Part shown: positions 2,619 to 61,896 of the stretch, piece by piece
Layout of the letters: every line of letters starts with the position of its first letter
Position numbering within the stretch: position 1 is the stretch's first letter
Origin: Escherichia phage P896
Sequence record: OL451225.1
Strand: one strand, 5' to 3'
DNA length: 64,000 nucleotides
Program-made: the position numbers and the translations under genes
Notes under the pieces: generated by a model
The model's database searches: none
Told to the model about the DNA's origin: nothing
What the model saw: the letters and a program-made list of their open reading frames with translations, nothing else

Positions 2619-2900
2619 TTACAATTTGGCGGCTTGGACTGCTTTATTGGCTTCAGTCATTTTAGCTAGATTTTCAGCAGTAGGATTGGCAATGTATTCG
2701 GCTGTAGCTTGAGCAAAAACATTATGAGTTTCGATTACATTTTTAGCATTTTCAGTATTCATATCAATTTCTTGTTTAGATAAATTTTTTAGTTGATTGG
2801 CTAAGAGTTCTACAAAGATTTCAACATTAGCGTTTTCAATTATAGCATTAATATGCTTCTTACGAGCTTTCTTAAGTTGACGTTTATTTAAACGAGCCAT
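2619..2900 (-). CDS. Hypothetical protein (93 aa)
   Basis: ORF track; Lys-rich N-terminus. Confidence 0.5.
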   Translation of the reverse strand: MARLNKRQLKKARKKHINAIIENANVEIFVELLANQLKNLSKQEIDMNTENAKNVIETHNVFAQATAEYIANPTAENLAKMTEANKAVQAAKL

Positions 2901-3418
2901 TAATAACCTCGGTCTTGGCGAGCAAAGTTCTCGGCATTTTTCAGGTAATACAGTTTAAAGATTTCTTCTGCTGTCAGACCAAGACCATGGAACATATTCA
3001 GAACAAAGTGCAGGATATCAATCATTTCGAATTTAATTTCGAGCTGGTCTTCAGGAGACAATTCATCAATACGACGATTACGGAATTCAGCATGTTGCGC
3101 TTTCCACGGCTTCCAGCAACTGGATGCGGCTTTCTCACCATTAGACATGCCACCGAGCGAAGTCAGAAGTTCACGGAATTCGTCGTCGACATAATCTTTC
3201 TGGTTACGAAGCCATGCAACAACATCGCCTGCGGTTGCCAATTCATCTGGATGTGTGTTATATTCTGGTTTTTCTGTAGCCAGACGAACCTGCAAAGATT
3301 TCTGCATATCAAGCATAATCTGCAGAGGGTCATCATTGCCTTTTAGGACATCATTATACGCATCTTGCGCTTTATCAACACCAGCAATCAGTTGAGAACA
3401 CTCGTTAAAATGAGCCAT
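2900..3418 (-). CDS. 56: dCTP pyrophosphatase gp56 (MazG-like dCTPase/dUTPase)
   Basis: MAHFNEC...DPLQIMLDMQ...ETAGDVV...SPEDQLEIKFE...LYYLKNAENFARQD matches recalled T4 gp56; start set at second Met. Confidence 0.9.
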   Translation of the reverse strand: MAHFNECSQLIAGVDKAQDAYNDVLKGNDDPLQIMLDMQKSLQVRLATEKPEYNTHPDELATAGDVVAWLRNQKDYVDDEFRELLTSLGGMSNGEKAASSCWKPWKAQHAEFRNRRIDELSPEDQLEIKFEMIDILHFVLNMFHGLGLTAEEIFKLYYLKNAENFARQDRGY

Positions 3419-9350: not shown

Positions 9351-9679
9351 CTCTTTTTCATTTTAATTTTATCAATTTCATCTTGTATTTGCATTGTAAC
9401 ACACTTTTCTACATGCACAGCAAGCTCCGCTTTGCGGTCTTCAGAAGGGGTGCCGAAATCAACTGAAACTTTTCCAGATGGTTCAATTTTAATTCCGGTT
9501 ACGTACACAATGTGACTGGACCCATCAGGGAGTGATAACAGAATTTCCTGCCGTACAGTTCCCATGGATTGCCGGATAATCTCCAAACTTTTTTCGTAGT
9601 AAGGTACAGAAGGAGCCTTAGCTCCCTCCGCATCTTTCTCGAAATTATCTAAATCAGATAAATCGATATCATTCATCAA
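9335..9679 (-). CDS. 40: gp40 head vertex assembly chaperone homolog
   Basis: 114 aa ORF between 41 and uvsX; call by synteny and size. Confidence 0.6.
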   Translation of the reverse strand: MMNDIDLSDLDNFEKDAEGAKAPSVPYYEKSLEIIRQSMGTVRQEILLSLPDGSSHIVYVTGIKIEPSGKVSVDFGTPSEDRKAELAVHVEKCVTMQIQDEIDKIKMKKRWWKW

Positions 9680-10847
9680 GGTCTTCCATCATATCTAAAT
9701 CGTTTTCGATATCTGCCGCAGACGGTTTTGTCTTACCTTCAGGAGCAGTGTATTTTTCAACCTTGGAGGCAATAAGCGCATCAACTTCGGCATCAACAAC
9801 AGCATTGCTATCGATTGCACCCAGTTGGTAATGGCGTTTGATTGCATCACGGAAAGGTTCGTGCTTGAACAGCGGGCCCCAGAATTCGGTGCAGTTAGTA
9901 TCTTTTGCGCGCCATGATTTTTCTTCGCGGACCATTTCACCGGTCTCAACATCAAGATATTCACGGTTATACCAACCAACTTTTGGTTTCACCACAAATC
10001 CGATTTCCATTGCCATATCAAGCAGGCCAGAATACGGGTCAATACCCCCATCGAATTTTACATCAATGAAGAATTTACTTTTCTCTTTGACCATACGAGA
10101 TTTTTCGGCGTTCAGAACAAATTGGAAGCCTTCAAGTTCTTTACCAGTTTCTTTAATCTGGCGTTTGCCGATAATGAATACGGTGTCCGCAGAATACATA
10201 ACACCTGTACCGCCGGTCATAACGGTTTTACTGTACATCTCAATCGTCTCGATTGTATGGTTAACCGCGACACAAGGAATATCCTTGATGCTAAAATACG
10301 GGGTAACAATACGGAACAGAGATTTCAGGGATTTGGCACGAGTCATATCACCAACGACTTTTTCGTTCATCGCATCTTCTGTTTCTTTTTTCGACGCCAT
10401 GTTACCGATTGAGTCAATAAAAATAATGACTTTTTCACCACGCTCAATTGCTTCAAGCTGGTTAACCATATCAACTTTCAATTGTTCAACCGACTGGATT
10501 GGTGTATGGATAACACGTTCCGGGTCAACTTTCATTGCACGAAGATATGCTTCTGTGATACCAAATTCTGAATCATAGAACAAACAGATTGCATCGGGGT
10601 ATTTGTTCATATATGCAGAGACCATCGTTAAACCCATATTGGATTTAAAGTGTTTTGACGGACCAGCAAAAATAGTCAAACCTGACTGCATACCACCATC
10701 TAGTGCACCGCTGATTGCAATGTTCAGCATCGGGATTTTTGTACGAACTACATCTTTACCATTAAAGAACTTGGACTTGGTAAGAGTCGCGGTCATTTTG
10801 GATGTAGAAGCTTTAATCAAACGGGATTTCAAATCTGCAATAGACAT
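9669..10847 (-). CDS. uvsX: UvsX recombinase (RecA-like)
   Basis: 392 aa; RecA-fold Walker A FAGPSKHFKS; synteny 40-uvsX. Confidence 0.93.
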   Translation of the reverse strand: MSIADLKSRLIKASTSKMTATLTKSKFFNGKDVVRTKIPMLNIAISGALDGGMQSGLTIFAGPSKHFKSNMGLTMVSAYMNKYPDAICLFYDSEFGITEAYLRAMKVDPERVIHTPIQSVEQLKVDMVNQLEAIERGEKVIIFIDSIGNMASKKETEDAMNEKVVGDMTRAKSLKSLFRIVTPYFSIKDIPCVAVNHTIETIEMYSKTVMTGGTGVMYSADTVFIIGKRQIKETGKELEGFQFVLNAEKSRMVKEKSKFFIDVKFDGGIDPYSGLLDMAMEIGFVVKPKVGWYNREYLDVETGEMVREEKSWRAKDTNCTEFWGPLFKHEPFRDAIKRHYQLGAIDSNAVVDAEVDALIASKVEKYTAPEGKTKPSAADIENDLDMMEDLDE

Positions 10848-10894
10848 TCATTTTTTCCATAGGCACCATCATATTTTTCTCACAGGTTTAAGAT

Positions 10895-10930
10895 ATGATA
10901 ATTATATCACTGTATTTTTAGAGCAATTAA
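10895..10930 (-). promoter_or_regulatory. Candidate middle-mode promoter (MotA-box-like + -10) upstream of uvsX
   Basis: Minus strand AATTGCTCTA ...~13 nt... TATAAT upstream of uvsX ATG. Confidence 0.4.
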
Positions 10931-10932
10931 TG

Positions 10933-11436
10933 TTAGTTAATACCTTGGCGTGCTTTCTCTTTAGCTACACATTTATTAATATAGCTCAGACGGTTTTGAG
11001 CAGAACGCTGATACATATCGCGGTACTCATTAGCTTTTGGAGAACCCGTCTCCGCTGCCTGATAAGCTTCTGCGCGCATGATGTTTATCTGCATATTGAT
11101 ATATGACATGCAGACCTGCGAAATCTGGTTAACAGTATCCAGGTCATTTTGTCGCTTGGTTTCTGCTTCCAGCTTGGCAATGATTTCGTCATGCTTCGCA
11201 GCTTGCTCGCGTTTGTACTCAATTTCTTGTTGAGCATATTTCGCGCAGTTGTTTCCACATTGATTGTTGTCGCGTTTGTAGATAAGTCCAGTACCACCTT
11301 TGAAATCAAAGGAACCATTATGCACCTGACGGTCTGCAGCAATTCGCGCTTTACCAATCTCGTTGGCATTAACAACATCACCCTGGTAAGCACAACCAGA
11401 TAGCAGCATAACAGCTGCGATAGCTAACTTTTTCAT
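10933..11436 (-). CDS. Putative lipoprotein (167 aa)
   Basis: MKKLAIAAVMLLSGC signal peptide + lipobox Cys; occupies the slot where T4 has beta-gt/42. Confidence 0.65.
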   Translation of the reverse strand: MKKLAIAAVMLLSGCAYQGDVVNANEIGKARIAADRQVHNGSFDFKGGTGLIYKRDNNQCGNNCAKYAQQEIEYKREQAAKHDEIIAKLEAETKRQNDLDTVNQISQVCMSYINMQINIMRAEAYQAAETGSPKANEYRDMYQRSAQNRLSYINKCVAKEKARQGIN

Positions 11437-11442
11437 TGTATT

Positions 11443-11586
11443 TTCCTCAATTAAAACATTCATAGCGGGCTTGGAGCCCCAAAAATACCCAACCCAAAAT
11501 TAAAGTTGGAATCATATGTGGAGTCATTATTGCCCAGTAGATTGACATACTAAAAAATGCAATCAGTACAATAATTGTAATTATCT
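11443..11586 (-). CDS. Small membrane protein (47 aa)
   Basis: Own translation MKIITIIVLIAFF...; single hydrophobic helix. Confidence 0.35.
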
Positions 11587-11829
11587 TCATTTTGCTTCCT
11601 TGATGATAATTACTTGTGCATTTGATTTACGTTCAGCAACGAGTGCCCAGATAAATGCAATAAACCATCCGACCATTGTCCAACCTAACAGGAGGTTAAC
11701 AAAGAAGATTCCGCAATTACTTTTGGTTCCACGCAGTAGCGCGATAATCCACGGCAGAAAATATACCAGTGCAGCCAGGAAGAAAGAACCAGCCCCAAGA
11801 ACAACAGTACCCGCAATTAATGCTTCCAT
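11587..11829 (-). CDS. Two-TM membrane protein (80 aa), Imm-like by position
   Basis: Start at MEALIAG (upstream extension in track is read-through of promoter leader); 2 TM helices; immediately upstream of gene 43 as T4 imm. Confidence 0.5.
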   Translation of the reverse strand: MEALIAGTVVLGAGSFFLAALVYFLPWIIALLRGTKSNCGIFFVNLLLGWTMVGWFIAFIWALVAERKSNAQVIIIKEAK

Positions 11830-11901
11830 TTTAATATCCTCAAGTTTGTAATCAGTAGTTGATGGAACAATCATACGGCAATCCTTTGCCGTTGTAAACA
11901 C
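11830..11901 (-). promoter_or_regulatory. T4-type early promoter + leader (family A variant)
   Basis: Minus GTTTACAACGG...CCATCAACTACTGATTACAAACTTGAGGATATTAAAATG. Confidence 0.5.
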
Positions 11902-14616
11902 TTAAAAATCAAACATATCAAAAAGAGTTGCTTTCTTTTCGTAATCAACCTTTGCAGCTTCGGAGAAACCTGTTAATGGCTTAACAAAAGTCTTCTGGAA
12001 CAGTGTGTTGTAGTCCATCCACTGCAGAACCTGGTCACGGATTTCAATCGGGAGTTCAATCCCAGATGGCCATGCAATCACGGTTTCACCAAACGGGTTG
12101 CCGACTTTGAGCGGAAGTACATACACCTTTTCCCCTTCCATGATTTGCGGAACAGTCTTCAGACCTTTAGTTGCACGCATATATGCAAGCACACCTTTGA
12201 TATGAGCCGGACACTTAAATCCAGGGAAACCGCCTTCATTATATTTCTGGATGTTGTTAACCGATGATACACCTGCGATGGTCATGTAGTTAAGCTCATT
12301 AAATTCCTTATTGAATTCCTTGAAGTATGTCTGCAGAGATTCTTCACCTTCTTGCAGCATACGGCGGATACATTCTTTCAGAGCTTTCTGACATGCCTTT
12401 GGAGTACTCGACTTTTGAGTTTCCAGACCCATGATTTTCAGTTTCGGAACAGCATATCGTGTGCCTTCCATATCGTACACGTTCAACGCATAACGCTTCT
12501 TCGCTGTCCAGAATCCACCAACACCCTTCGAACCCAGTGGAGGACATGCAATCGCCTCACGGTCCATAAACATAAGGTGCTGTTTGTTGTTCATGTATTC
12601 AGCCAGCTCACGGAAAGCTTTATCGATTGCCGGTTCCAGACGGTCTTTCGCAAACTTGTCCATGAAGTCAACCAGGTGGTTTGTATCGCGGAATTTAGAT
12701 TCACCACCAACCTTTTTAATCAGGTTATCGCACTGGATATAAATGGAGTCAGTGTCACCATAGAATACGTAGGTTTCGCCGCTTGTCCCACAGACACTAT
12801 CGAAGTATTCGTTAACTTTACGCTCAATCCACTGCAATGCAAGTTGTCCGAAAGATGTAATCGCGGTTGCATTTCGCAGGTCAAAGTAACGGAACCATAT
12901 ATTGCCCAGAGCGCCATAACAACTGTTGATAAGCAGTTTACGGTTAATCTGTGCGGTCATGCCTGCAACTTCTTCCATCTGCGCTTTGTACAGCATACCA
13001 TTTAGGACTGTTTGATTCAGACCATGCAGGGCCGTTTTCATATTGTCATCAAAGTCATGACGATAATCAACTTCAGGCTCGGTTGTACCAGTTCCTGGAT
13101 TACGCAGAGCTTCCTTAATCAGTTCACCATTACGTTGAGCCGCAAGCATATAGCCTTTGTGTTCTTTACGCTGATTAAACACCTTGGTGACTTCTGTCGG
13201 AATAATACCCGCAACATCTTTAAAATACATCATACCATTTGGAGCACAACTAAATGTATCAGATGGACGGTCAGCAGTTCCTGCAATGTATTCGTACATC
13301 GGCGCTGGCGCAAATGACCCGGCAATCGTTTCTGGACTGATGTTAATCTGTCGGATAATGCTTGGATACAGAGATGTTAAGTCACAGCTCATTACATATT
13401 TGTATGCGTTCGGAATCGGTTCCTTAACAAATGCACCAGGGAACGATTGGCGAACATGTGATTTGGTTTCCGGAATGACTTTGTTTTGAGTCTTCAGGCT
13501 GTTAAAGATAATCGCATCCCAAGTTTTGATTGGGCTGAATACAGACTGAATCTGCATTTTTGCATAATAACCCATTGACTGGCTCAGGTTAATAAACTGC
13601 CGCTTACGGTCAATCTGCACAACACGATAAACGTCGATGATGTTATAAGAAATATACCGCTGGTGATTTGATTCACGCAGTTTAGAAATCGGGCCATCAT
13701 ACGGGAGTTTACCAACACCCAGTTCAGATTCCGCAACATAATCCAACGAATAAGACGGTTGGTTTGTGAAGCTGAACTTTTTATACAGGTCCAGATAATC
13801 CAGAACAGAGATACCCAGAATCTGAATGATTTCTTGTTCTTCACCAAAGCCGTTGTTAATGACTTTAACTTTTGTACGACGATGTGGGCTCAGACGTTTT
13901 GCCGTAGCTTCACCAAATACATTTTTAAGGCGGTTGTAGATATATGGAATATCAAACTTCTCGATGTTCCAACCAGTTAACATAACCGGAGTTTTCTCGT
14001 TCCAGAATACCAAATACTGCTGGAGCATTTCTTCTTCTGAATCGAAAGCCATATAAACAATTTTTTCCAGGATTTCTTCCGGGACTTCATCACCACCATC
14101 TTCCTGCAGCTTAGCAGCAATATCAATAGACCATTGCTCCACAGTGGCGTATGGTGAGCCCAAAAGGTCAAAGACATAGAATTTATCGTCTACCGAATCA
14201 TAGTGCGTCAGGGCGTCAATAGGGTGACGTGCTTCAGACGGCTCAGGGAACCCATCAGGAGATGTCACCTCGATATCGAAGTTAGCCACACGGATTTTAC
14301 TTGAATCGTATTTGATTTCGTGCGGGTAACGGTCGGACAAGTATGCGAGTTTAAAGTCGTCCATGCCCATGGCTTCGAGGCCCATGTCATTCATTCGCTT
14401 CATCCACTGGGATGCATCACGCATGGAATCGAATTCTTTTTTCACACAACCTTTATTATAGATGTCTGTATACTTTGCAGCTTGGTCTTCACGGGCGTGC
14501 ATAAACAAGCATGGAGCATAAGGGATTTCACGAACACGTTCATGACCATTCTTGTCAATATATCGTTCGTGTAGGTTGTCACCGATTTGTTCGATAGTTA
14601 AATAAAATTCTTGCAT
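11902..14616 (-). CDS. 43: DNA polymerase gp43 (family B)
   Basis: 904 aa; exonuclease motifs (FDIE), polymerase motifs (DxxSLYPS, YGDTDS). Confidence 0.97.
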   Translation of the reverse strand: MQEFYLTIEQIGDNLHERYIDKNGHERVREIPYAPCLFMHAREDQAAKYTDIYNKGCVKKEFDSMRDASQWMKRMNDMGLEAMGMDDFKLAYLSDRYPHEIKYDSSKIRVANFDIEVTSPDGFPEPSEARHPIDALTHYDSVDDKFYVFDLLGSPYATVEQWSIDIAAKLQEDGGDEVPEEILEKIVYMAFDSEEEMLQQYLVFWNEKTPVMLTGWNIEKFDIPYIYNRLKNVFGEATAKRLSPHRRTKVKVINNGFGEEQEIIQILGISVLDYLDLYKKFSFTNQPSYSLDYVAESELGVGKLPYDGPISKLRESNHQRYISYNIIDVYRVVQIDRKRQFINLSQSMGYYAKMQIQSVFSPIKTWDAIIFNSLKTQNKVIPETKSHVRQSFPGAFVKEPIPNAYKYVMSCDLTSLYPSIIRQINISPETIAGSFAPAPMYEYIAGTADRPSDTFSCAPNGMMYFKDVAGIIPTEVTKVFNQRKEHKGYMLAAQRNGELIKEALRNPGTGTTEPEVDYRHDFDDNMKTALHGLNQTVLNGMLYKAQMEEVAGMTAQINRKLLINSCYGALGNIWFRYFDLRNATAITSFGQLALQWIERKVNEYFDSVCGTSGETYVFYGDTDSIYIQCDNLIKKVGGESKFRDTNHLVDFMDKFAKDRLEPAIDKAFRELAEYMNNKQHLMFMDREAIACPPLGSKGVGGFWTAKKRYALNVYDMEGTRYAVPKLKIMGLETQKSSTPKACQKALKECIRRMLQEGEESLQTYFKEFNKEFNELNYMTIAGVSSVNNIQKYNEGGFPGFKCPAHIKGVLAYMRATKGLKTVPQIMEGEKVYVLPLKVGNPFGETVIAWPSGIELPIEIRDQVLQWMDYNTLFQKTFVKPLTGFSEAAKVDYEKKATLFDMFDF

Positions 14617-19978: not shown

Positions 19979-20996
19979 TGTTGCACCTCAAGATATAATT
20001 TGTTGGCCAATGCTTTGAGAGCTTTTGATTCTTTCTCATTGGCGTCAGGTAATGCATCGATATATTCTGCCATCATATCTGTTAAGCGTTTTATGTCTAA
20101 CTCTTCATCAGAGTCTGACGTATCAACACTGTTATCAACCTTATTGACAACACGCAATTCATGCACACGCTTTTCTAATTCAGATTCGAACTTGGTCAGG
20201 TCTTTATCGACTTTTTCTACAATAACACGGACTGATAAGTCTTTGAAGTCGTCGTAGTTAATAGTTTCGTTTGGATAGAAAATCTTCCGATGCCAGGTGG
20301 TTTCATTCGGAATAAATTTCATCTCTTCGGTTTCGGTATCAAATTCCCAGAACCCGCGCGGGTCGTTCTCATCACCTGCTGTTAATGTCCATGGTGTCCC
20401 GATGTACTTAACGTTTGCGGCTTCTGAAATGGTATGAAAGTGACCAGACCAAACTTGCTTGTACTTCTTAAGGAAATCAGGCTCAAGTCCGTGGGATTTC
20501 AATCCTTTATAGAAATAAAACCCGGTTAATTCCCAGTGACCGATGCAATATTCAGCCCCAGAAGTTTTGATGTGTTGATGAATGTCAGTTGCGTTCTCGT
20601 CACACATCCATGGAATCATATCAATCTGATAACCGTCAAAATCAACAGTCGTTGGCTTATCGTAGATTTTAACATGGTCATACTTATTCAGGAGTTCAGT
20701 GATAGCATTGGGATGAATCTTATTCTTCAGATTCATGTCATGGTTCCCGACTATCGTGTGCATAGTAATTCCTGCTTCACGAAGGAGTTCCATAATCTCA
20801 CGGCTGAATTCCATCGTCTTATGCGTTACGGCCTTACGGACGTCAAAAATATCACCATATTGAATCCAGACTTTAATCCCATTCGCTTTGGAATATGCAA
20901 TCGCCTGTAAAATACCATCGCGTTGAATGTTTTGAGCCCATGGGTCGTCAGCTTTGACACCCAAGTGCCAATCACCTAAATTTAAAATTTTCATAA
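19975..20996 (-). CDS. 47: Recombination nuclease subunit gp47 (Mre11/SbcD-like)
   Basis: Start at MKILNLGDWHLG (phosphoesterase motif I); 340 aa. Confidence 0.93.
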
Positions 20997-21134
20997 GCCA
21001 AGCACCGTTATCGCAATGCAAAATAAAATTATTGAAATGAACCCGTCAGGAGTGGAAAAGAATCCTATCCAACAAGCTCGTGTGAATGTATAGAATGCCA
21101 TGAATAGCACGACATATCCTAAAAATAATTCCAT
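20993..21134 (-). CDS. Small membrane protein (47 aa)
   Basis: Own translation MELFLGYVVLFMAF...; ATGA overlap with gene 47 start. Confidence 0.35.
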
Positions 21135-21180
21135 ATGTTCTCCTCAGTTGGTTCATTTTATCATCCCGAATATAAAGCAA

Positions 21181-21205
21181 AAAGGAAGCACTAGGCTTCC
21201 TTTCC
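21181..21205 (-). terminator. Hairpin terminator
   Basis: GGAAGC-ACTA-GGCTTCC palindrome flanked by A/T runs. Confidence 0.45.
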
Positions 21206-21422
21206 AATTAATACACCATACAGAGGTTCATGAGAAGACCTGAACTTGATAGGCTTATAGGTAATAGTACCTTCATTTTCTGCTTTAATACGAGCGGCTT
21301 CAAATTGAAGTATCATCTCATTTTTGTCAGATTTAATCTTATCAAAATCCGTCGAATTCGTCATTCATATGACCTCTTAAACTTTTTCGTATTCGTCGTT
21401 CATTAGCCTGCTGTCCATGTTA

Positions 21423-21629
21423 TCATCGTTGCCACCATTTCTTAAGTTGATGTGAGTCTACCCAAACTTTGGATGTCGGCTCAATTTTAACAATACCTTT
21501 TGGAACACCATAAGGGCCAAGGAGCTTACATTCGGTTTCGGACTGCTTGATACAGATATTACCGTATGAGCGAAGTCTGAAAGCGGCTCCAATAAGAAGC
21601 CGTTTAAAAGGTTTATTTACTAATGCCAT
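21423..21629 (-). CDS. Hypothetical protein (68 aa)
   Basis: ORF track. Confidence 0.45.
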   Translation of the reverse strand: MALVNKPFKRLLIGAAFRLRSYGNICIKQSETECKLLGPYGVPKGIVKIEPTSKVWVDSHQLKKWWQR

Positions 21630-21924
21630 TTACGATTTCCCAAATTTGTTTGCGAGTAGAATCCCACATCAACTTAATCAGGTCTTCCGTAACGGGTTGG
21701 CGGTAAATCCCACGCAGTTTAACTAAAGCGTATTTGTATGCTTCAAAATTGTTTTCCAGCACTGCGCCTTGAGCATGCTTATTCAGTCGTGCAATTTCAC
21801 GAGCATTCTTTTTCAGAATCTTCGCTGCTTGGCTGGTTGCTTCAAGTGCGTTCGCTTCTTCGAGACGTTCCTGTGCTTCTTCAATCTGCTTATCGGTCAG
21901 TTGAGAAATATCTGGAGCTTGCAT
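21613..21924 (-). CDS. Hypothetical protein (103 aa)
   Basis: ORF track. Confidence 0.5.
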   Translation of the reverse strand: MQAPDISQLTDKQIEEAQERLEEANALEATSQAAKILKKNAREIARLNKHAQGAVLENNFEAYKYALVKLRGIYRQPVTEDLIKLMWDSTRKQIWEIVNGISK

Positions 21925-21925
21925 A

Positions 21926-22177
21926 TTAATCCTTGGGAGTTAACTCAATTGTAAAATATAGATTAGCATTATCCACATGATAACGGTAATCAACGTTATT
22001 ATCCGGTGAAGTAAATTCCAGATTCCGGACGTTTAAAGGGTCGATATCAATTGGAAGACCTTTTATGTCTCGCAGATAAAGTTTAATGAAATATGGGAGC
22101 GCCGTAAAGTCTTCCTCGATTTTATCTAAAAAATCGGTAATATCAAATTGATGTTCCATATAAAAAATCCAAATCAC
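21926..22177 (-). CDS. Hypothetical protein (83 aa)
   Basis: ORF track. Confidence 0.5.
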
Positions 22178-47590: not shown

Positions 47591-48171
47591 TTACGGCATT
47601 CCTCAATAAAAGAGTTTAATGTATTTTTCTTGGCGATATCATCATATACCTTTTTAACTTTAGAAATACGAAAAGGTACTTCAATAGCCATAGTCCATAA
47701 AAATGATGCAATAAGTCCAACAGCAGCAGAAGAAATGCACGCGCCCATTACAGCCACAGGTGCTTCATTTTTACCCGTCAAGAAAAACCACAGGATTGGT
47801 AAAAATAAGATTCCAGCCCAGGCATAAAACCTGGAACAAATTAACTTATCAAATTCATCTTTCCAGGTACGAAATCCATATTTCTTGCTATAAGAAATTA
47901 ATGGGTCGGGTGTCTGTTCTTTGAGTGGTTCCGGTTGATACCCATTAACAATATATCCCATTTTATATTCCTTAATTAAAAGCTCTTTCACATGACGATT
48001 GCATCGCGACCAATCAACATTTTCCACCTTGATTCCTTCATCACCATCGTCAAGGTTCGCCCAATATTTTTTGGTAATCATAAATTCATCTCTTGATACA
48101 ATTATACCTGCATTTTCTGCCCGACGGATGAAGTTTACATCAACACCCATACAACCAGGTTCATACAGCAT
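47587..48171 (-). CDS. Membrane protein (194 aa) with C-terminal FIEECRK tail
   Basis: C-terminal TM helices; shares terminal FI.EC[RK] motif with 52421/52761/53095 ORFs. Confidence 0.55.
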   Translation of the reverse strand: MLYEPGCMGVDVNFIRRAENAGIIVSRDEFMITKKYWANLDDGDEGIKVENVDWSRCNRHVKELLIKEYKMGYIVNGYQPEPLKEQTPDPLISYSKKYGFRTWKDEFDKLICSRFYAWAGILFLPILWFFLTGKNEAPVAVMGACISSAAVGLIASFLWTMAIEVPFRISKVKKVYDDIAKKNTLNSFIEECRK

Positions 48172-48857
48172 TACCAGCCCTCCATAGGAAATTCCAGATA
48201 TACTTGAGCATTAACGCGGATTTCATTGGTGATTTTATTAACGCGGTCAGTTTTACGAGATACGCGACCAAACCAGCGCCAACCATTACCAACCGTTTTT
48301 GTTCCAGTATGCCAGGTCTGCCAGTTGAATTCACACAACGTGCGGTCAGGAGCTTCTTGAACTAAAAGTTCACCCGCCTTGATTTTTTCCAGAACTTCCT
48401 GATGCCACTGGCGATAGATAAGTTCGCCATCAGGAATCTGACTGAATTCTGAAGTTCCCAGAGCAAAATGAGTAGGGCAAACAGAAGCGTTAACCAGACC
48501 CAGGATGTGTTCAGAATGGTAACGAGGGTTATCATAATCAGGTTGTCCTGCTGTAATAAAATGTTGTCCTGCTGGAATATCTGGACGTGGTACATCATCA
48601 TGGTGATACCCAGGGATAGCAGGATACCAACCAGGCATCAACATATGGACGCGAGAGTCAAATACAACCTGGTCAGTGTTCCAATCATCCGGCAGGTTCA
48701 TGATGAAGCTGCGAGTAATAGGACCGCCATTATCAAAAGCGAAGGCTAACGAGCTGTTGAAGAACATAGTTTCGTTTTTGATTTTATCGTTAGAAATTTT
48801 ACCAGCAAATTGACCAACTTCACGCATTTGACTATTAAAAGTTTTTGAGCTATTCAT
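48171..48857 (-). CDS. Hypothetical protein (~228 aa)
   Basis: Start set at MNSSKTFNS with GAGGAAA RBS; His/Asp-rich segment GYHHDD. Confidence 0.55.
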   Translation of the reverse strand: MNSSKTFNSQMREVGQFAGKISNDKIKNETMFFNSSLAFAFDNGGPITRSFIMNLPDDWNTDQVVFDSRVHMLMPGWYPAIPGYHHDDVPRPDIPAGQHFITAGQPDYDNPRYHSEHILGLVNASVCPTHFALGTSEFSQIPDGELIYRQWHQEVLEKIKAGELLVQEAPDRTLCEFNWQTWHTGTKTVGNGWRWFGRVSRKTDRVNKITNEIRVNAQVYLEFPMEGW

Positions 48858-49158: not shown

Positions 49159-50118
49159 TTATTTTGTGAAAGGACGAATTAAATGTTGGTTAGCCTTAAA
49201 GCGTTTAACATAGTCTTCGCGACCCAGGGTGTTGTACATATTAACCACTTCCTGGTAATGTTCCCAGGCATACTCGCGGAACCATCCAGAAGTAATGGAG
49301 GTACAGACTTTTTCCAGCGCAATATGGAAGCTCACAGATGGAGAGATATTGAACTCATTAGGAACCTGCGAACGCTCCAGAGCGAGCACACATGCTTCTT
49401 CATAAACCCCTGCCAGTTTAATAATCTCAGGGAGTGCTTCAAATTTTTCACGCGAGGTCATGACTTCTGAATCATCCTTCATATAAAACTTATATGCAGG
49501 CTTATCAGCAAGCGCCACAGCCTCGTGGATGGAGTCATGGTCAAGGGTGTAGATTGTATCATTAAAGAAAGTTTTCTTGCCCACGTCTAGTTTAGGGTGA
49601 CTGTATGACAGTGTTTCTGCCTGACGCTGCAGCATGATTTTCTGCAGTTCATCATTAAGAACAATACCCTTATTGCGAAGGTAATTAATATGACTCATGG
49701 TCTTCAGGAAGAATGGATTGTTCTTCAGGTAACGATGAGACAATTTAATCGCCAGACAAATATCAGGCGTCGCCCAATAGAAACCTGTAAGACGGTCTTT
49801 CTTAATATGATTTTCAGCGTATTTCAAGAGACGATAACTTGAGGTGAAATCTTCGTCTTGAAGCTCACCAGTAATTTCTCGTACGTTGGTCAGGGCACGG
49901 ACAATATAAGCTTCAAAATAGGTTTCTTTGCCATTGTACATACATTTAAAAGCTTGGACATCAGGGTTATCCACAGGAACATGAGCACCGAACATACGTG
50001 CTTTAAAGTGGTTCCAAGAACCCTGGTCAGCGATAAAGTCCCAATCAGAGTTTTCAATTTTCTGACTTTCAATCAGACCAGCGTTATGTAATGCACGAGA
50101 ACCAATAACTAACATCAT
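49159..50118 (-). CDS. Hypothetical protein (319 aa)
   Basis: Long ORF, no motif recognised. Confidence 0.65.
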   Translation of the reverse strand: MMLVIGSRALHNAGLIESQKIENSDWDFIADQGSWNHFKARMFGAHVPVDNPDVQAFKCMYNGKETYFEAYIVRALTNVREITGELQDEDFTSSYRLLKYAENHIKKDRLTGFYWATPDICLAIKLSHRYLKNNPFFLKTMSHINYLRNKGIVLNDELQKIMLQRQAETLSYSHPKLDVGKKTFFNDTIYTLDHDSIHEAVALADKPAYKFYMKDDSEVMTSREKFEALPEIIKLAGVYEEACVLALERSQVPNEFNISPSVSFHIALEKVCTSITSGWFREYAWEHYQEVVNMYNTLGREDYVKRFKANQHLIRPFTK

Positions 50119-51842: not shown

Positions 51843-52124
51843 TTAACATTCAGCAGAAGAGGACACCCAACCACCATTTTCCAGGTCAGTTGTATAGTCA
51901 TGAGTATTAACAATAGCCCATTCAGGATGACCATGTTCTTCCCAATGAGCAAGGTCAGCTTTCAGGGCACCAGGAGAATAATAGTCACCGCCCATACCGC
52001 GAGCAGGGTATATATTAAAATGAGTCTCATATTTGTCTGCAATTTCCTCGGCACGACGAATAGCTTTATGGATGTCATTTACTGCGTTAGCCAGTTCTTT
52101 ATTTTTACGGTAATCATTCATCAT
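51843..52124 (-). CDS. Small protein, W-V-S-S-S-x-x-C family member 3 (93 aa)
   Basis: C-terminus NGGWVSSSAEC. Confidence 0.55.
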   Translation of the reverse strand: MMNDYRKNKELANAVNDIHKAIRRAEEIADKYETHFNIYPARGMGGDYYSPGALKADLAHWEEHGHPEWAIVNTHDYTTDLENGGWVSSSAEC

Positions 52125-52133
52125 AACGTTTCC

Positions 52134-52424
52134 TTAGCACATTGCCGAAGAGGAGACCCAAGCACCAACTGTAACGACACCGTTTTCAACTTCACCGCCG
52201 TTGTTTTCAATTTCATTTTTAAACCACTGGGAGCATTCATAACCGACAGGATAATATGTACGGCCCGAACCATAATCACCGGTACCAAATTGGATACCAT
52301 ATTCATCTGCGATTTCTTCACAGTGTTTTTCAATTTCAGAGGTCTTATTTAGAAGAGAATAGATAGCTTTTTCTGCAGATTTCTCATCATAATACTTGGG
52401 GATAGCAATTTCAATTTTATTCAT
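52134..52424 (-). CDS. Small protein, W-V-S-S-S-x-x-C family member 4 (96 aa)
   Basis: C-terminus VGAWVSSSAMC. Confidence 0.55.
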   Translation of the reverse strand: MNKIEIAIPKYYDEKSAEKAIYSLLNKTSEIEKHCEEIADEYGIQFGTGDYGSGRTYYPVGYECSQWFKNEIENNGGEVENGVVTVGAWVSSSAMC

Positions 52425-55181: not shown

Positions 55182-55625
55182 TTAAATTTCAAATTCTTTG
55201 CGGAAGTTGGAAGCATAAGACTGAACTGATGCTTTGTTGAATCCAAACTCACGCACAATCATATCAATAACAGCTCTGCGAGCAGCACCATTAGACATAT
55301 TAACAGTTTTGAACATATCATAGCATAAATCTTTGTTGCTCATACCGGAGCGTTTAGGTGCCTTACGTTCAGCTTTTGGTTCAGCTTTAGGAGTAGGTTT
55401 AACTTCTGGTTTAACCTGTCCATCATTCAGACCTTTAAAAATTTTACCTGCCAGAGTTGCCAGTTTAGCAGCTTCGCCACGAGTGATACCAAATACTGCC
55501 GGGTTAAATGAAATACCTTCAGCTGTCAGACGTTTGAAGAACATACGTGCTGCGGATTGTGCTTCAGCTTCAGAAGAGTTGTTTAATGCCAGTTTAACAT
55601 ACTTAACCAGTTTTGAAGTTTTCAT
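55182..55625 (-). CDS. Hypothetical protein (147 aa), shared C-terminal domain with 56078..56503
   Basis: C-terminus NGAARRAVIDMIVREFGFNKASVQSYASNFRKEFEI. Confidence 0.55.
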   Translation of the reverse strand: MKTSKLVKYVKLALNNSSEAEAQSAARMFFKRLTAEGISFNPAVFGITRGEAAKLATLAGKIFKGLNDGQVKPEVKPTPKAEPKAERKAPKRSGMSNKDLCYDMFKTVNMSNGAARRAVIDMIVREFGFNKASVQSYASNFRKEFEI

Positions 55626-56077: not shown

Positions 56078-56503
56078 TTATTTTTGAGCTTTGCGGAAGT
56101 TGGATGCATATGACTGAACAACAGTCTTTTTGATATCATGGGTGGTAACCAGAACATCAATCAGAGCGCGACGAGCTGCATTATCATTCATATCAATTTC
56201 TGCAAATGCCTGGAAGCAAATGTCACGAGCGTTACCAGATTTGGACTGGATTTTTTCTTCTTTAACTTCTTCAATTGGGAATTCAATCATTTCAGCTTGG
56301 ATTAATTCAATGATAGATTCTTTTGACTGTTTGGTGTTTACCTTCAGTTCAGAATTAAGGGACTTGGCGATGGCAACAATCTGGGTTGAAGTCAGATGAA
56401 TAAGTGCATCTTCACGAATGCAGATTTCACATACTTCGTCAGCAACCATTTTGTTAGTGATGCGGGTAACAGAGAATGCAGAGGTCAGGGTCAGGAAGTT
56501 CAT
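56078..56503 (-). CDS. Hypothetical protein (141 aa), shared C-terminal domain with 55182..55625
   Basis: C-terminus NDNAARRALIDVLVTTHDIKKTVVQSYASNFRKAQK. Confidence 0.55.
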   Translation of the reverse strand: MNFLTLTSAFSVTRITNKMVADEVCEICIREDALIHLTSTQIVAIAKSLNSELKVNTKQSKESIIELIQAEMIEFPIEEVKEEKIQSKSGNARDICFQAFAEIDMNDNAARRALIDVLVTTHDIKKTVVQSYASNFRKAQK

Positions 56504-57564: not shown

Positions 57565-57641
57565 TGGTCGGGGTGGTGGGATTCTAACCCACAACCTACG
57601 GTTTAGAAGACCGTTGCTCTATACAATTAAGCTACACCCCG
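57565..57641 (-). tRNA. tRNA-Arg (anticodon TCT), CCA encoded
   Basis: Cloverleaf read by eye: acceptor CGGGGTG/CACCCCG, anticodon arm ACGGT-CTTCTAA-ACCGT, T arm GTGGG-TTAGAAT-CCCAC. Confidence 0.7.
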
Positions 57642-57643
57642 GG

Positions 57644-57717
57644 TGGCCCCATCCGGACTTGAACCGGAAACCTGCCAGTTATGAGCCGGATGCTCTAACC
57701 AATTGAGCTACAGGGCC
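57644..57717 (-). tRNA. tRNA with CAT anticodon (Ile-lysidine type as in T4, or Met)
   Basis: Acceptor GGCCCTG/TGGGGCC, D arm GCTC-AATTGGTTA-GAGC, anticodon loop CTCATAA, T arm TCCGG-TTCAAGT-CCGGA; directly abuts tRNA-Arg. Confidence 0.8.
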
Positions 57718-61218: not shown

Positions 61219-61219
<1 letters not shown>

Positions 61220-61896
61220 TATATTACCTTATTAATTTTATCAAAAAGTTCATCGAGTGTGCCATCGTTTTTAATAACAATGTCACTAGCTAGTGGTGGA
61301 AGTCCAGCTTCCGTAATGTGTGTATCAGTAGAATGATTTGCTTCATCGCGTTCTACAAAGATTATTGTAGCACCCATCGCCCGAAGCGAATCAAGTTCGT
61401 TCTTTTGGCGAACATCTGGGACAACGTAATATTTATATCCAGAATAGAGGTTGTCAAGATAGTCGCATGCAAAAGTTTTAATCCAAAACATGCTGTCGAA
61501 CTCTGTACAAACGATGTCAGTTCCAAGGGTCTGCATGAAACGTCTAACTGTCCAGGGCTCAACATTATTTAGTGTGTGAAATTCAATAATTTTACGAACC
61601 ATATCTGGATTCGGAAGGTCAAGATTATATTGTTGTTTCAACCATTCAAGAGCATCAACCAGAAGAATATAAGCTTCGGTGTTGTTCATTATCAAGGTTT
61701 TTTCACGGTCATAACCTTGCCCGTCAAAATTTTCCAGGGTCAAATTGTGTGGCAGGTCTTGACGAATCCACGCTTTATAAAGCGCTTCTTTAATCGGACC
61801 AGCAAGCTGCCACTTTGTTCCATTTTGACTAATAACATAATCAGCAGTCGTATCTTTACCGCTGCGTTTTTTACCCACAATCGCAATTAATTTCAT
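61219..61896 (-). CDS. 1: Deoxynucleoside monophosphate kinase gp1
   Basis: 225 aa; P-loop GKKRSGKDTTAD as T4 gp1. Confidence 0.9.

Follow-up and report, generated by a model that had tools for sequence, protein, structure and literature searches.

Two cytosine chemistries have been described in T-even-like coliphages, glucosyl-5-hydroxymethylcytosine (glucosyl-hmC) and arabinosyl-5-hydroxycytosine, and modification genes of both systems lie between the recombinase gene uvsX and the DNA polymerase gene 43. In phage T4 the order of this region is 43, imm.1, imm, 42, beta-gt, segA, uvsX. In JS98 and VR5, which belong to the genus Dhakavirus, it is 43, imm, a small open reading frame (ORF) annotated in JS98, a lipoprotein gene, five cassette genes and uvsX. 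In JS98 the cassette comprises orf42 (nucleotidyltransferase plus kinase), orf41 (annotated as phosphoheptose isomerase), orf40 (P-loop kinase), orf39, a protein with thymidylate synthase (TS) fold (Pfam 3.6e-13) that is 25% identical to T4 gp42, and orf38, the fifth gene. The JS98 record gives these genes as counterparts of RB69 orf045c-052c and orf39 as homologous to RB69 gp48, which converts deoxycytidine monophosphate (dCMP) to 5-hydroxy-dCMP that is later arabinosylated on DNA (PMC13326640). A further system is that of Xanthomonas phage XP12, in whose DNA 5-methylcytosine (5mC) fully replaces cytosine and whose thymidine nucleotides derive from a deaminated methylated cytosine nucleotide (10.1101/2024.12.05.627091). 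Here we have analysed a stretch of 64,000 nt from Escherichia phage P896 (record OL451225.1; hereafter, the window), a member of the genus Gaprivervirus, sister genus of Dhakavirus. Its uvsX-43 interval has no cassette of this kind, and we propose that the step assigned to gene 42 in T4 is performed in this genus by a modified thymidylate synthase, Td, which would give DNA containing 5mC and no sugar.

The modification cassette is absent from the uvsX-43 interval

The window covers about 38% of a genome of ∼170 kb. Over the ∼5.1 kb around uvsX-43 it shows 98.2% identity with Shigella phage SP18 and 94% with Escherichia phage VR7, both of them Gapriverviruses, and the layout of the interval is common to 32 phage records. 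All the genes of the interval are encoded on the minus strand. The slot is bordered downstream by uvsX (9669..10847; 392 aa, 80% identical to T4 UvsX and 73% to JS98 UvsX) and upstream by the gp43 DNA polymerase gene (11902..14616; 904 aa, 78% identical to JS98 gp43 and 60% to T4 gp43). The preliminary description of the window had stated that only three small genes lie between them, and both the ORFs and the Pfam searches agree with it. The first (10933..11436) encodes a 167-aa protein, counted from Met10 of the ORF, with a signal peptide and the lipobox LLSGC; it matches phrog_1754 (5e-47), is 46% identical to JS98 orf43 and 98% identical to VR7ORF049c, and a Pfam search assigned it to no family. 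The second (11447..11590) is an ORF for a hydrophobic peptide of 47 aa, whose VR7 counterpart is annotated as 'gp42.1' and for which the family search gave no match. The third (11587..11829) encodes the 80-aa superinfection-immunity membrane protein Imm (PF14373 Imm_superinfect, 9.4e-18). Between uvsX and the lipoprotein gene there is an intergenic junction of 85 bp (10848..10932, minus strand), with a TATAAT-like box upstream of uvsX, and it is at this site that the relatives carry their cytosine-modification genes.

The same description regarded these small genes as occupants of the slots of the missing enzymes. Their presence there is right; their role as replacements is not, because the same neighbours flank the full cassette in JS98 and VR5. 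DNA homology between the window and JS98 extends to window position 10911 (position 9930 of JS98 locus L006) and restarts at 11144 (L006 position 14510), so that ∼4.4 kb of JS98, comprising orf38 to orf42, has no counterpart at the window junction. The small genes are therefore conserved neighbours of the slot, and the cassette is absent from it rather than replaced. A ∼36-aa peptide gene located between uvsX and the slot in VR7 (locus L001 21331-21476) and in JS98 is missing in the window phage (10911..10932), and the junction has thus been trimmed further in the SP18-like lineage. The corresponding extra 145 bp of VR7 were considered as a cassette remnant and this was rejected, since they encode that small peptide, present also in JS98. 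Another slot, that of phage JK45, holds a 5-hydroxy-dCMP synthase-type cassette with arabinose-activation and transferase genes; a weak gp42 match in this phage was rejected as a Dhakavirus gene, JK45 being filed under Tequatrovirus with an arabinose-type cassette.

The modification genes were also searched for in the rest of the window. T4 gp42, beta-gt and alpha-gt gave only chance-level tblastn matches against the whole 64 kb (E ≥ 0.16), and JS98 orf38, orf39 and orf42 gave no match. As previously noted for this DNA, the 47-55 interval (20991..22159, minus strand) lacks alpha-gt: T4 alpha-gt had no tblastn match there, and the interval contains only small genes (Pfam DUF5486, DUF2654 and DUF5491), namely a 47.1-like peptide (20991..21134), a-gt.2 (21191..21364), a-gt.3 (21423..21629), a-gt.4 (21613..21924) and a-gt.5 (21926..22159), all on the minus strand.

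The genus retains genes of the cytosine-exclusion machinery

The preliminary description had also pointed out that the deoxycytidine triphosphate (dCTP)-degrading enzyme gp56 is kept. Indeed, the window encodes a gp56 dCTPase/dUTPase (2900..3418, minus strand; 172 aa) that shows conserved blocks throughout and a weak Pfam dUTPase_2 match; it is 84% identical to JS98 gp56 and 70% to both T4 and VR7 gp56. That it is closer to JS98 than to a phage of its own genus, and that the window UvsX is nearer to T4 than to JS98, illustrates the mosaicism of these genomes. The deoxynucleoside monophosphate kinase gp1 is also present (61219..61896, minus strand; PF21448 DNMK, 258 bits). Outside the region covered by the window, the VR7 and SP18 records are annotated with cd, alc, denA, denB, ndd, td and frd, and neither dam nor arn is annotated in them. 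SP18 Alc is 49% identical to JS98 Alc, compared with 90% for NrdA, a divergence possibly due to adaptation to another modified base. In SP18 (locus L008 2072-2822) and in VR7 (locus L004 17197-17944), alc is accompanied by a short ORF similar to the N-terminal part of Alc.

Previous surveys agree with this picture, as Gaprivervirus was reported to have dCTPase, Alc, DenB, DenA and Ndd and no hmC-synthesis gene, and an unfamiliar base was proposed (PMC8056088, PMC12115623). The absence of gene 42 beside dCTPase, Alc and DenB is thus real, and it is already a published puzzle. Restriction analysis of VR7 DNA, with EcoRII, SalI and Csp6I among the enzymes and with and without T4 beta-glucosyltransferase, led to the conclusion that its cytosines are modified and unglycosylated (PMC6326788). 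The figure that reports this calls VR5 and T4 glycosylated and a T4 mutant hydroxymethylated, whereas for VR7 the description is simply 'modified' (PMC6326788).

Td carries aspartate at the position that sets substrate specificity

We compared the Td sequences of SP18 and VR7, whose td gene lies outside the window, with those of related enzymes. The SP18 and VR7 proteins contain the motif GLPFDIGSYG, which corresponds to GLPFNIASYA in JS98 Td, in E. coli ThyA and in T4 Td (1TIS); Asn177 of the E. coli enzyme is thus replaced by Asp. This column of the alignment also has Asp in T4 gp42 and in JS98 orf39. Otherwise the SP18 protein is a near-canonical T-even Td with a thymidylate synthase fold (PF00303, 305 bits; 430 bits against T4 TS 1TIS), 49% identical to E. 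coli ThyA, and both SP18 and VR7 Td retain Leu143, Cys146, His147 and Asp169 (MALPPCH and RSVDVF; PPCH motif) as well as the full TS C-terminus. In both phages frd overlaps td.

Asn177 is the residue that sets specificity for deoxyuridine monophosphate versus dCMP, and engineered enzymes in which it is changed to Asp (N177D, N229D) methylate dCMP (PMC8670742). As for the product, Leu at 143 is correlated with methylation, and Asp or Glu there with hydroxymethylation; D169N marks the 5-hydroxy-dCMP synthases (PMC13326640). Five out of seven TS homologues predicted by such residues made 5-methyl-dCMP, and T4 gp1 carried this product into DNA (10.1101/2024.12.05.627091). The combination of Asp177, Leu143 and Asp169 is therefore predicted, by the published rules, to convert dCMP to 5-methyl-dCMP.

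We scanned the VR7 loci, which represent ∼86% of the genome, by tblastn with T4 gp42 and JS98 orf39, orf38 and orf42 (alpha-gt and beta-gt were not among these queries), and td was the sole TS-family match. The stretches outside the scan are 1-2883 and 98138-119299, the latter located between genes 20 and 29, which we take to be a block of structural genes.

Distribution of the Asp177 Td

Asp was found in 5 of the 120 closest protein clusters, four of them from Gaprivervirus (P0001-P0004) and the fifth from a metagenomic T4-like contig, in which the protein sits at an frd-td locus; Asn is found in the remaining 115 clusters, which come from other T4-like phages, Tequatrovirus and Dhakavirus among them. 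The Asp and the Asn groups differ by fixed residues at 28 positions, and many of these differences are shared by the metagenomic protein. Each of the 30 named records with an empty slot is also one of the 32 records that carry this type of Td. Outside this genus, Td of the Acinetobacter phages 133 and ZZ1 also has Asp at position 177. These two phages were listed together with Gaprivervirus as having none of the known base-synthesis enzymes while DenB, Alc and dCTPase are present (PMC8056088). Asn177 was found in the controls, which were KARL-1, a relative of those Acinetobacter phages, Krischvirus JEP8, JS98 and T4. Krischvirus has neither the hmC gene nor Alc and DenB (PMC12115623). According to a neighbour-joining tree, the switch arose at least twice within T4-like Td.

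A separate observation concerns Krischvirus SAP, reported to contain glucosylated hydroxymethylcytosine though no synthase is recognisable in it; TB34, which is 99.96% identical to SAP, has plain cytosine (PMC13390438). As Krischvirus JEP8 Td has Asn177, the Td explanation does not cover the SAP case.

A predicted route to 5-methylcytosine

The preliminary description had offered a different cytosine modification pathway as one of two solutions, and this is the likely answer, with an enzyme of the td locus, outside the window, as the best candidate. We consider it moderately probable that Td with Asp177 supplies the missing step and that the DNA contains 5mC and no sugar. In such a route, gp56 would turn dCTP into dCMP, keeping dCTP out of the pool; Td would methylate dCMP to 5-methyl-dCMP while Frd would recycle dihydrofolate; gp1 together with the host nucleoside diphosphate kinase would raise 5-methyl-dCMP to 5-methyl-dCTP; and gp43 would incorporate the latter, giving 5mC DNA without sugar. 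Alc and DenB would then target host cytosine DNA only, and thymidine monophosphate (dTMP) would be supplied either by Cd, through deamination of the methylated nucleotide, or by ThyA of the host. Beyond the Asp177 of Td, which is read directly, the substrate, the product and the flux, like everything else in this scheme, are what we infer from sequence. In its wider form, the proposal would be that Gapriverviruses and, independently, phages 133 and ZZ1 have lost the gp42-type cassette, kept Alc, DenB and gp56, replaced all cytosine by 5mC through a natural N177D Td, and obtain thymidylate by deamination or from the host; to this we give roughly even chances.

Several points weigh against this proposal. 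The residue rules are correlative, and the methylase of XP12 itself appears to be without Leu at 143. Because td is outside the window, the link to it is drawn through relatives and rests on the 94-98% identity over the compared ∼5.1-kb stretch, and among the 32 records the Asp has been seen by direct reading in SP18, in VR7 and in the representatives of four clusters. Between SP18 and JS98, Td identity is 69%, a low value that nonetheless falls within the mosaic range of these phages (UvsX 73%, gp43 78%, NrdA 90%); Td divergence was in fact dropped as a standalone sign of new function, since neighbouring genes span 64-90% identity. The absence of a gp42-type enzyme in 133 and ZZ1 rests on PMC8056088. 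Searches of the literature turned up neither a chemical identification of the base in Gaprivervirus nor a report that traces it to Td. The supply of dTMP is assumed, since there is no canonical Td. Finally, McrBC, McrA and Mrr of E. coli would be expected to attack DNA containing 5mC, and the VR7 annotation includes no Arn homologue; the proposal does not account for growth on ordinary hosts.

Alternative explanations

The alternative that survives best differs only in the product: Td with Asp177 would act on dCMP but release 5-hydroxymethyl-dCMP, giving non-glucosylated hmC as in T4 glucosyltransferase mutants. The Asp177 evidence applies equally to it, the exclusion genes are of T4 type, and the DNA of VR7 is modified and unglycosylated. 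Nevertheless, hydroxymethylases have Asp or Glu at 143, whereas this Td keeps Leu143 and a complete TS C-terminus; the fusion of frd to td is maintained, as would suit a reaction that produces dihydrofolate; and the bacteriophage exclusion (BREX) study (PMC6326788), which used T4 beta-glucosyltransferase, reserved 'hydroxymethylated' for the T4 mutant and called VR7 'modified'. We regard it as unlikely.

Still less likely, in our opinion, is that an unrelated and unrecognised enzyme, possibly encoded by a window ORF, makes the base and that the change in Td is incidental. Many window ORFs are without assigned function, and the two surveys left the question open (PMC8056088, PMC12115623); the preliminary description had directed attention to the unassigned ORFs of 280-340 aa. 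These correspond to VR7 NrdC.4, NrdC.5, NrdC.6, NrdC.11 and ORF136c (DUF7275/DUF7277), and their only Pfam matches are DUF7235, DUF7275/DUF7277 and an RlaP-type nucleotidyltransferase. The VR7 annotation gives T4 or JS98 homologues for them, and since both phages have dCMP-modifying enzymes of their own, these ORFs are unlikely pathway genes; the VR7 ORFs without a stated homologue are all short, ∼160 aa or less, with the exception of ORF006c (231 aa). Two other candidates were examined and rejected. The 228-aa phrog_1843 protein (48171..48857, minus strand) contains an HHDD...WHTG pattern (HxD...H) reminiscent of a metal-binding oxygenase and was considered as a dioxygenase, but it has no Pfam match and is not specific to phages lacking gp42: it gave tblastn matches in 471 phage records, including Dhakavirus, Mosigvirus, Klebsiella phages, Aeromonas phages and mycobacteriophages, and is thus widespread in phages with a known pathway. 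A similarity to a cytidine/deoxycytidylate deaminase, noted in the record for VR7ORF147c, was not borne out by its window counterpart (56078..56503), which has neither an HAE nor a PCxxC motif and matches unknown-function PHROGs only. Nor does an unrelated enzyme explain why Asp177 tracks the loss of gp42 in three lineages.

A third alternative would be that the DNA contains ordinary cytosine and that gp56, Alc and DenB have by drift taken on other roles, after the example of Krischvirus with its gp56 homologue. In Krischvirus and Pseudotevenvirus a dCTPase/dUTPase homologue is found although gp42 is absent (PMC12115623), and the low identity between the Alc proteins of SP18 and JS98 would be compatible with such drift. 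Against this, the cytosines of VR7 are modified according to restriction analysis (PMC6326788), and Krischvirus has a Td with Asn and lacks Alc and DenB (PMC12115623), whereas in Gaprivervirus all these genes are intact. This makes plain cytosine very improbable. The remaining suggestion of the preliminary description, that gene 42 and glycosyltransferases lie elsewhere in the genome, draws on the limited share of the genome that the window covers and is hardly credible, given that the gp42, orf38, orf39 and orf42 queries found td alone in the scanned ∼86% of VR7 and that two independent surveys report the absence (PMC8056088, PMC12115623).

Other features of the window

Some additional features were noticed during the analysis. 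One of the large ORFs discussed above (49159..50118, minus strand) encodes 319 aa with DUF7277 and DUF7275 domains (E 1e-75) and has a counterpart in JS98 ORF122c. The ORFs at 55182..55625 and 56078..56503 (both on the minus strand; 147 and 141 aa) have in common a C-terminal block ending in VQSYASNFRK and look like paralogues. Those at 51843..52124 and 52134..52424 (minus strand; 93 and 96 aa) end in GGWVSSSAEC and GAWVSSSAMC, which suggests a tandem duplication. At 57565..57717 (minus strand) there are adjacent tRNA genes, Arg(TCT) and Met(CAT), where the VR7 record annotates tRNA-Met alone.

Significance and comparison with known systems

Returning to the proposed 5mC route, its interest is that one residue in an enzyme everywhere annotated as "thymidylate synthase" gives a specific and directly testable answer to the puzzle of the base. 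If it is true, there would be a third cytosine chemistry in T-even-like coliphages, Td would have been retooled convergently in at least two phage clades, and a systematic annotation error would be flagged. It would also change what is expected of these therapy-candidate phages regarding sensitivity to BREX and type IV restriction, risk of transduction, and behaviour in sequencing and cloning, and DNA fully substituted with 5mC would become available from a phage of E. coli.

With the glucosyl-hmC system of T4, the Gaprivervirus system shares the genome architecture and the exclusion logic, the modification genes of T4 occupying the same uvsX-43 slot. The shared parts are gp56 and gp1 in the window, and Alc, DenB, DenA, Ndd and Cd in SP18 and VR7. 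It differs from T4 in that gp42 was not found in the window or in the VR7 loci and neither glucosyltransferase was found in the window, and in that there is no sugar on the DNA, as determined experimentally in VR7 (PMC6326788). With regard to the arabosyl-5-hydroxycytosine pathway of RB69 and JS98, the Dhakavirus cassette lies in exactly this slot, by the same lipoprotein and Imm genes. That pathway is marked by a TS homologue with N177D, L143E and D169N together with kinase, sugar-activation and transferase genes; here the 4.4-kb cassette is missing, and the candidate Td, unlike the 5-hydroxy-dCMP synthases, keeps Asp169 and Leu143.

The likeness to XP12 lies elsewhere. The XP12 methylase has Asp in the 177 column and is encoded in a TS-deaminase-dihydrofolate reductase (DHFR) operon; in both cases the TS gene adjoins the DHFR gene and the genome contains a dCMP deaminase, and full replacement of cytosine would be predicted here as well. 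However, the XP12 enzyme is 29% identical to SP18 Td and of independent origin, and XP12, a siphovirus not related to these phages, has no exclusion by Alc, DenB or a gp56-type enzyme. At the level of the enzyme there is a parallel with the engineered E. coli ThyA N177D and Lactobacillus casei TS N229D, which are otherwise complete thymidylate synthases with the discriminating Asn changed to Asp. In contrast to these laboratory mutants, the Gaprivervirus Td would have arisen in nature and become fixed in a genus of phages, and it carries 27 other substitutions specific to the lineage; with Asn177 changed to Asp, it would be a further example of a TS-family enzyme that replaces cytosine at the nucleotide level.

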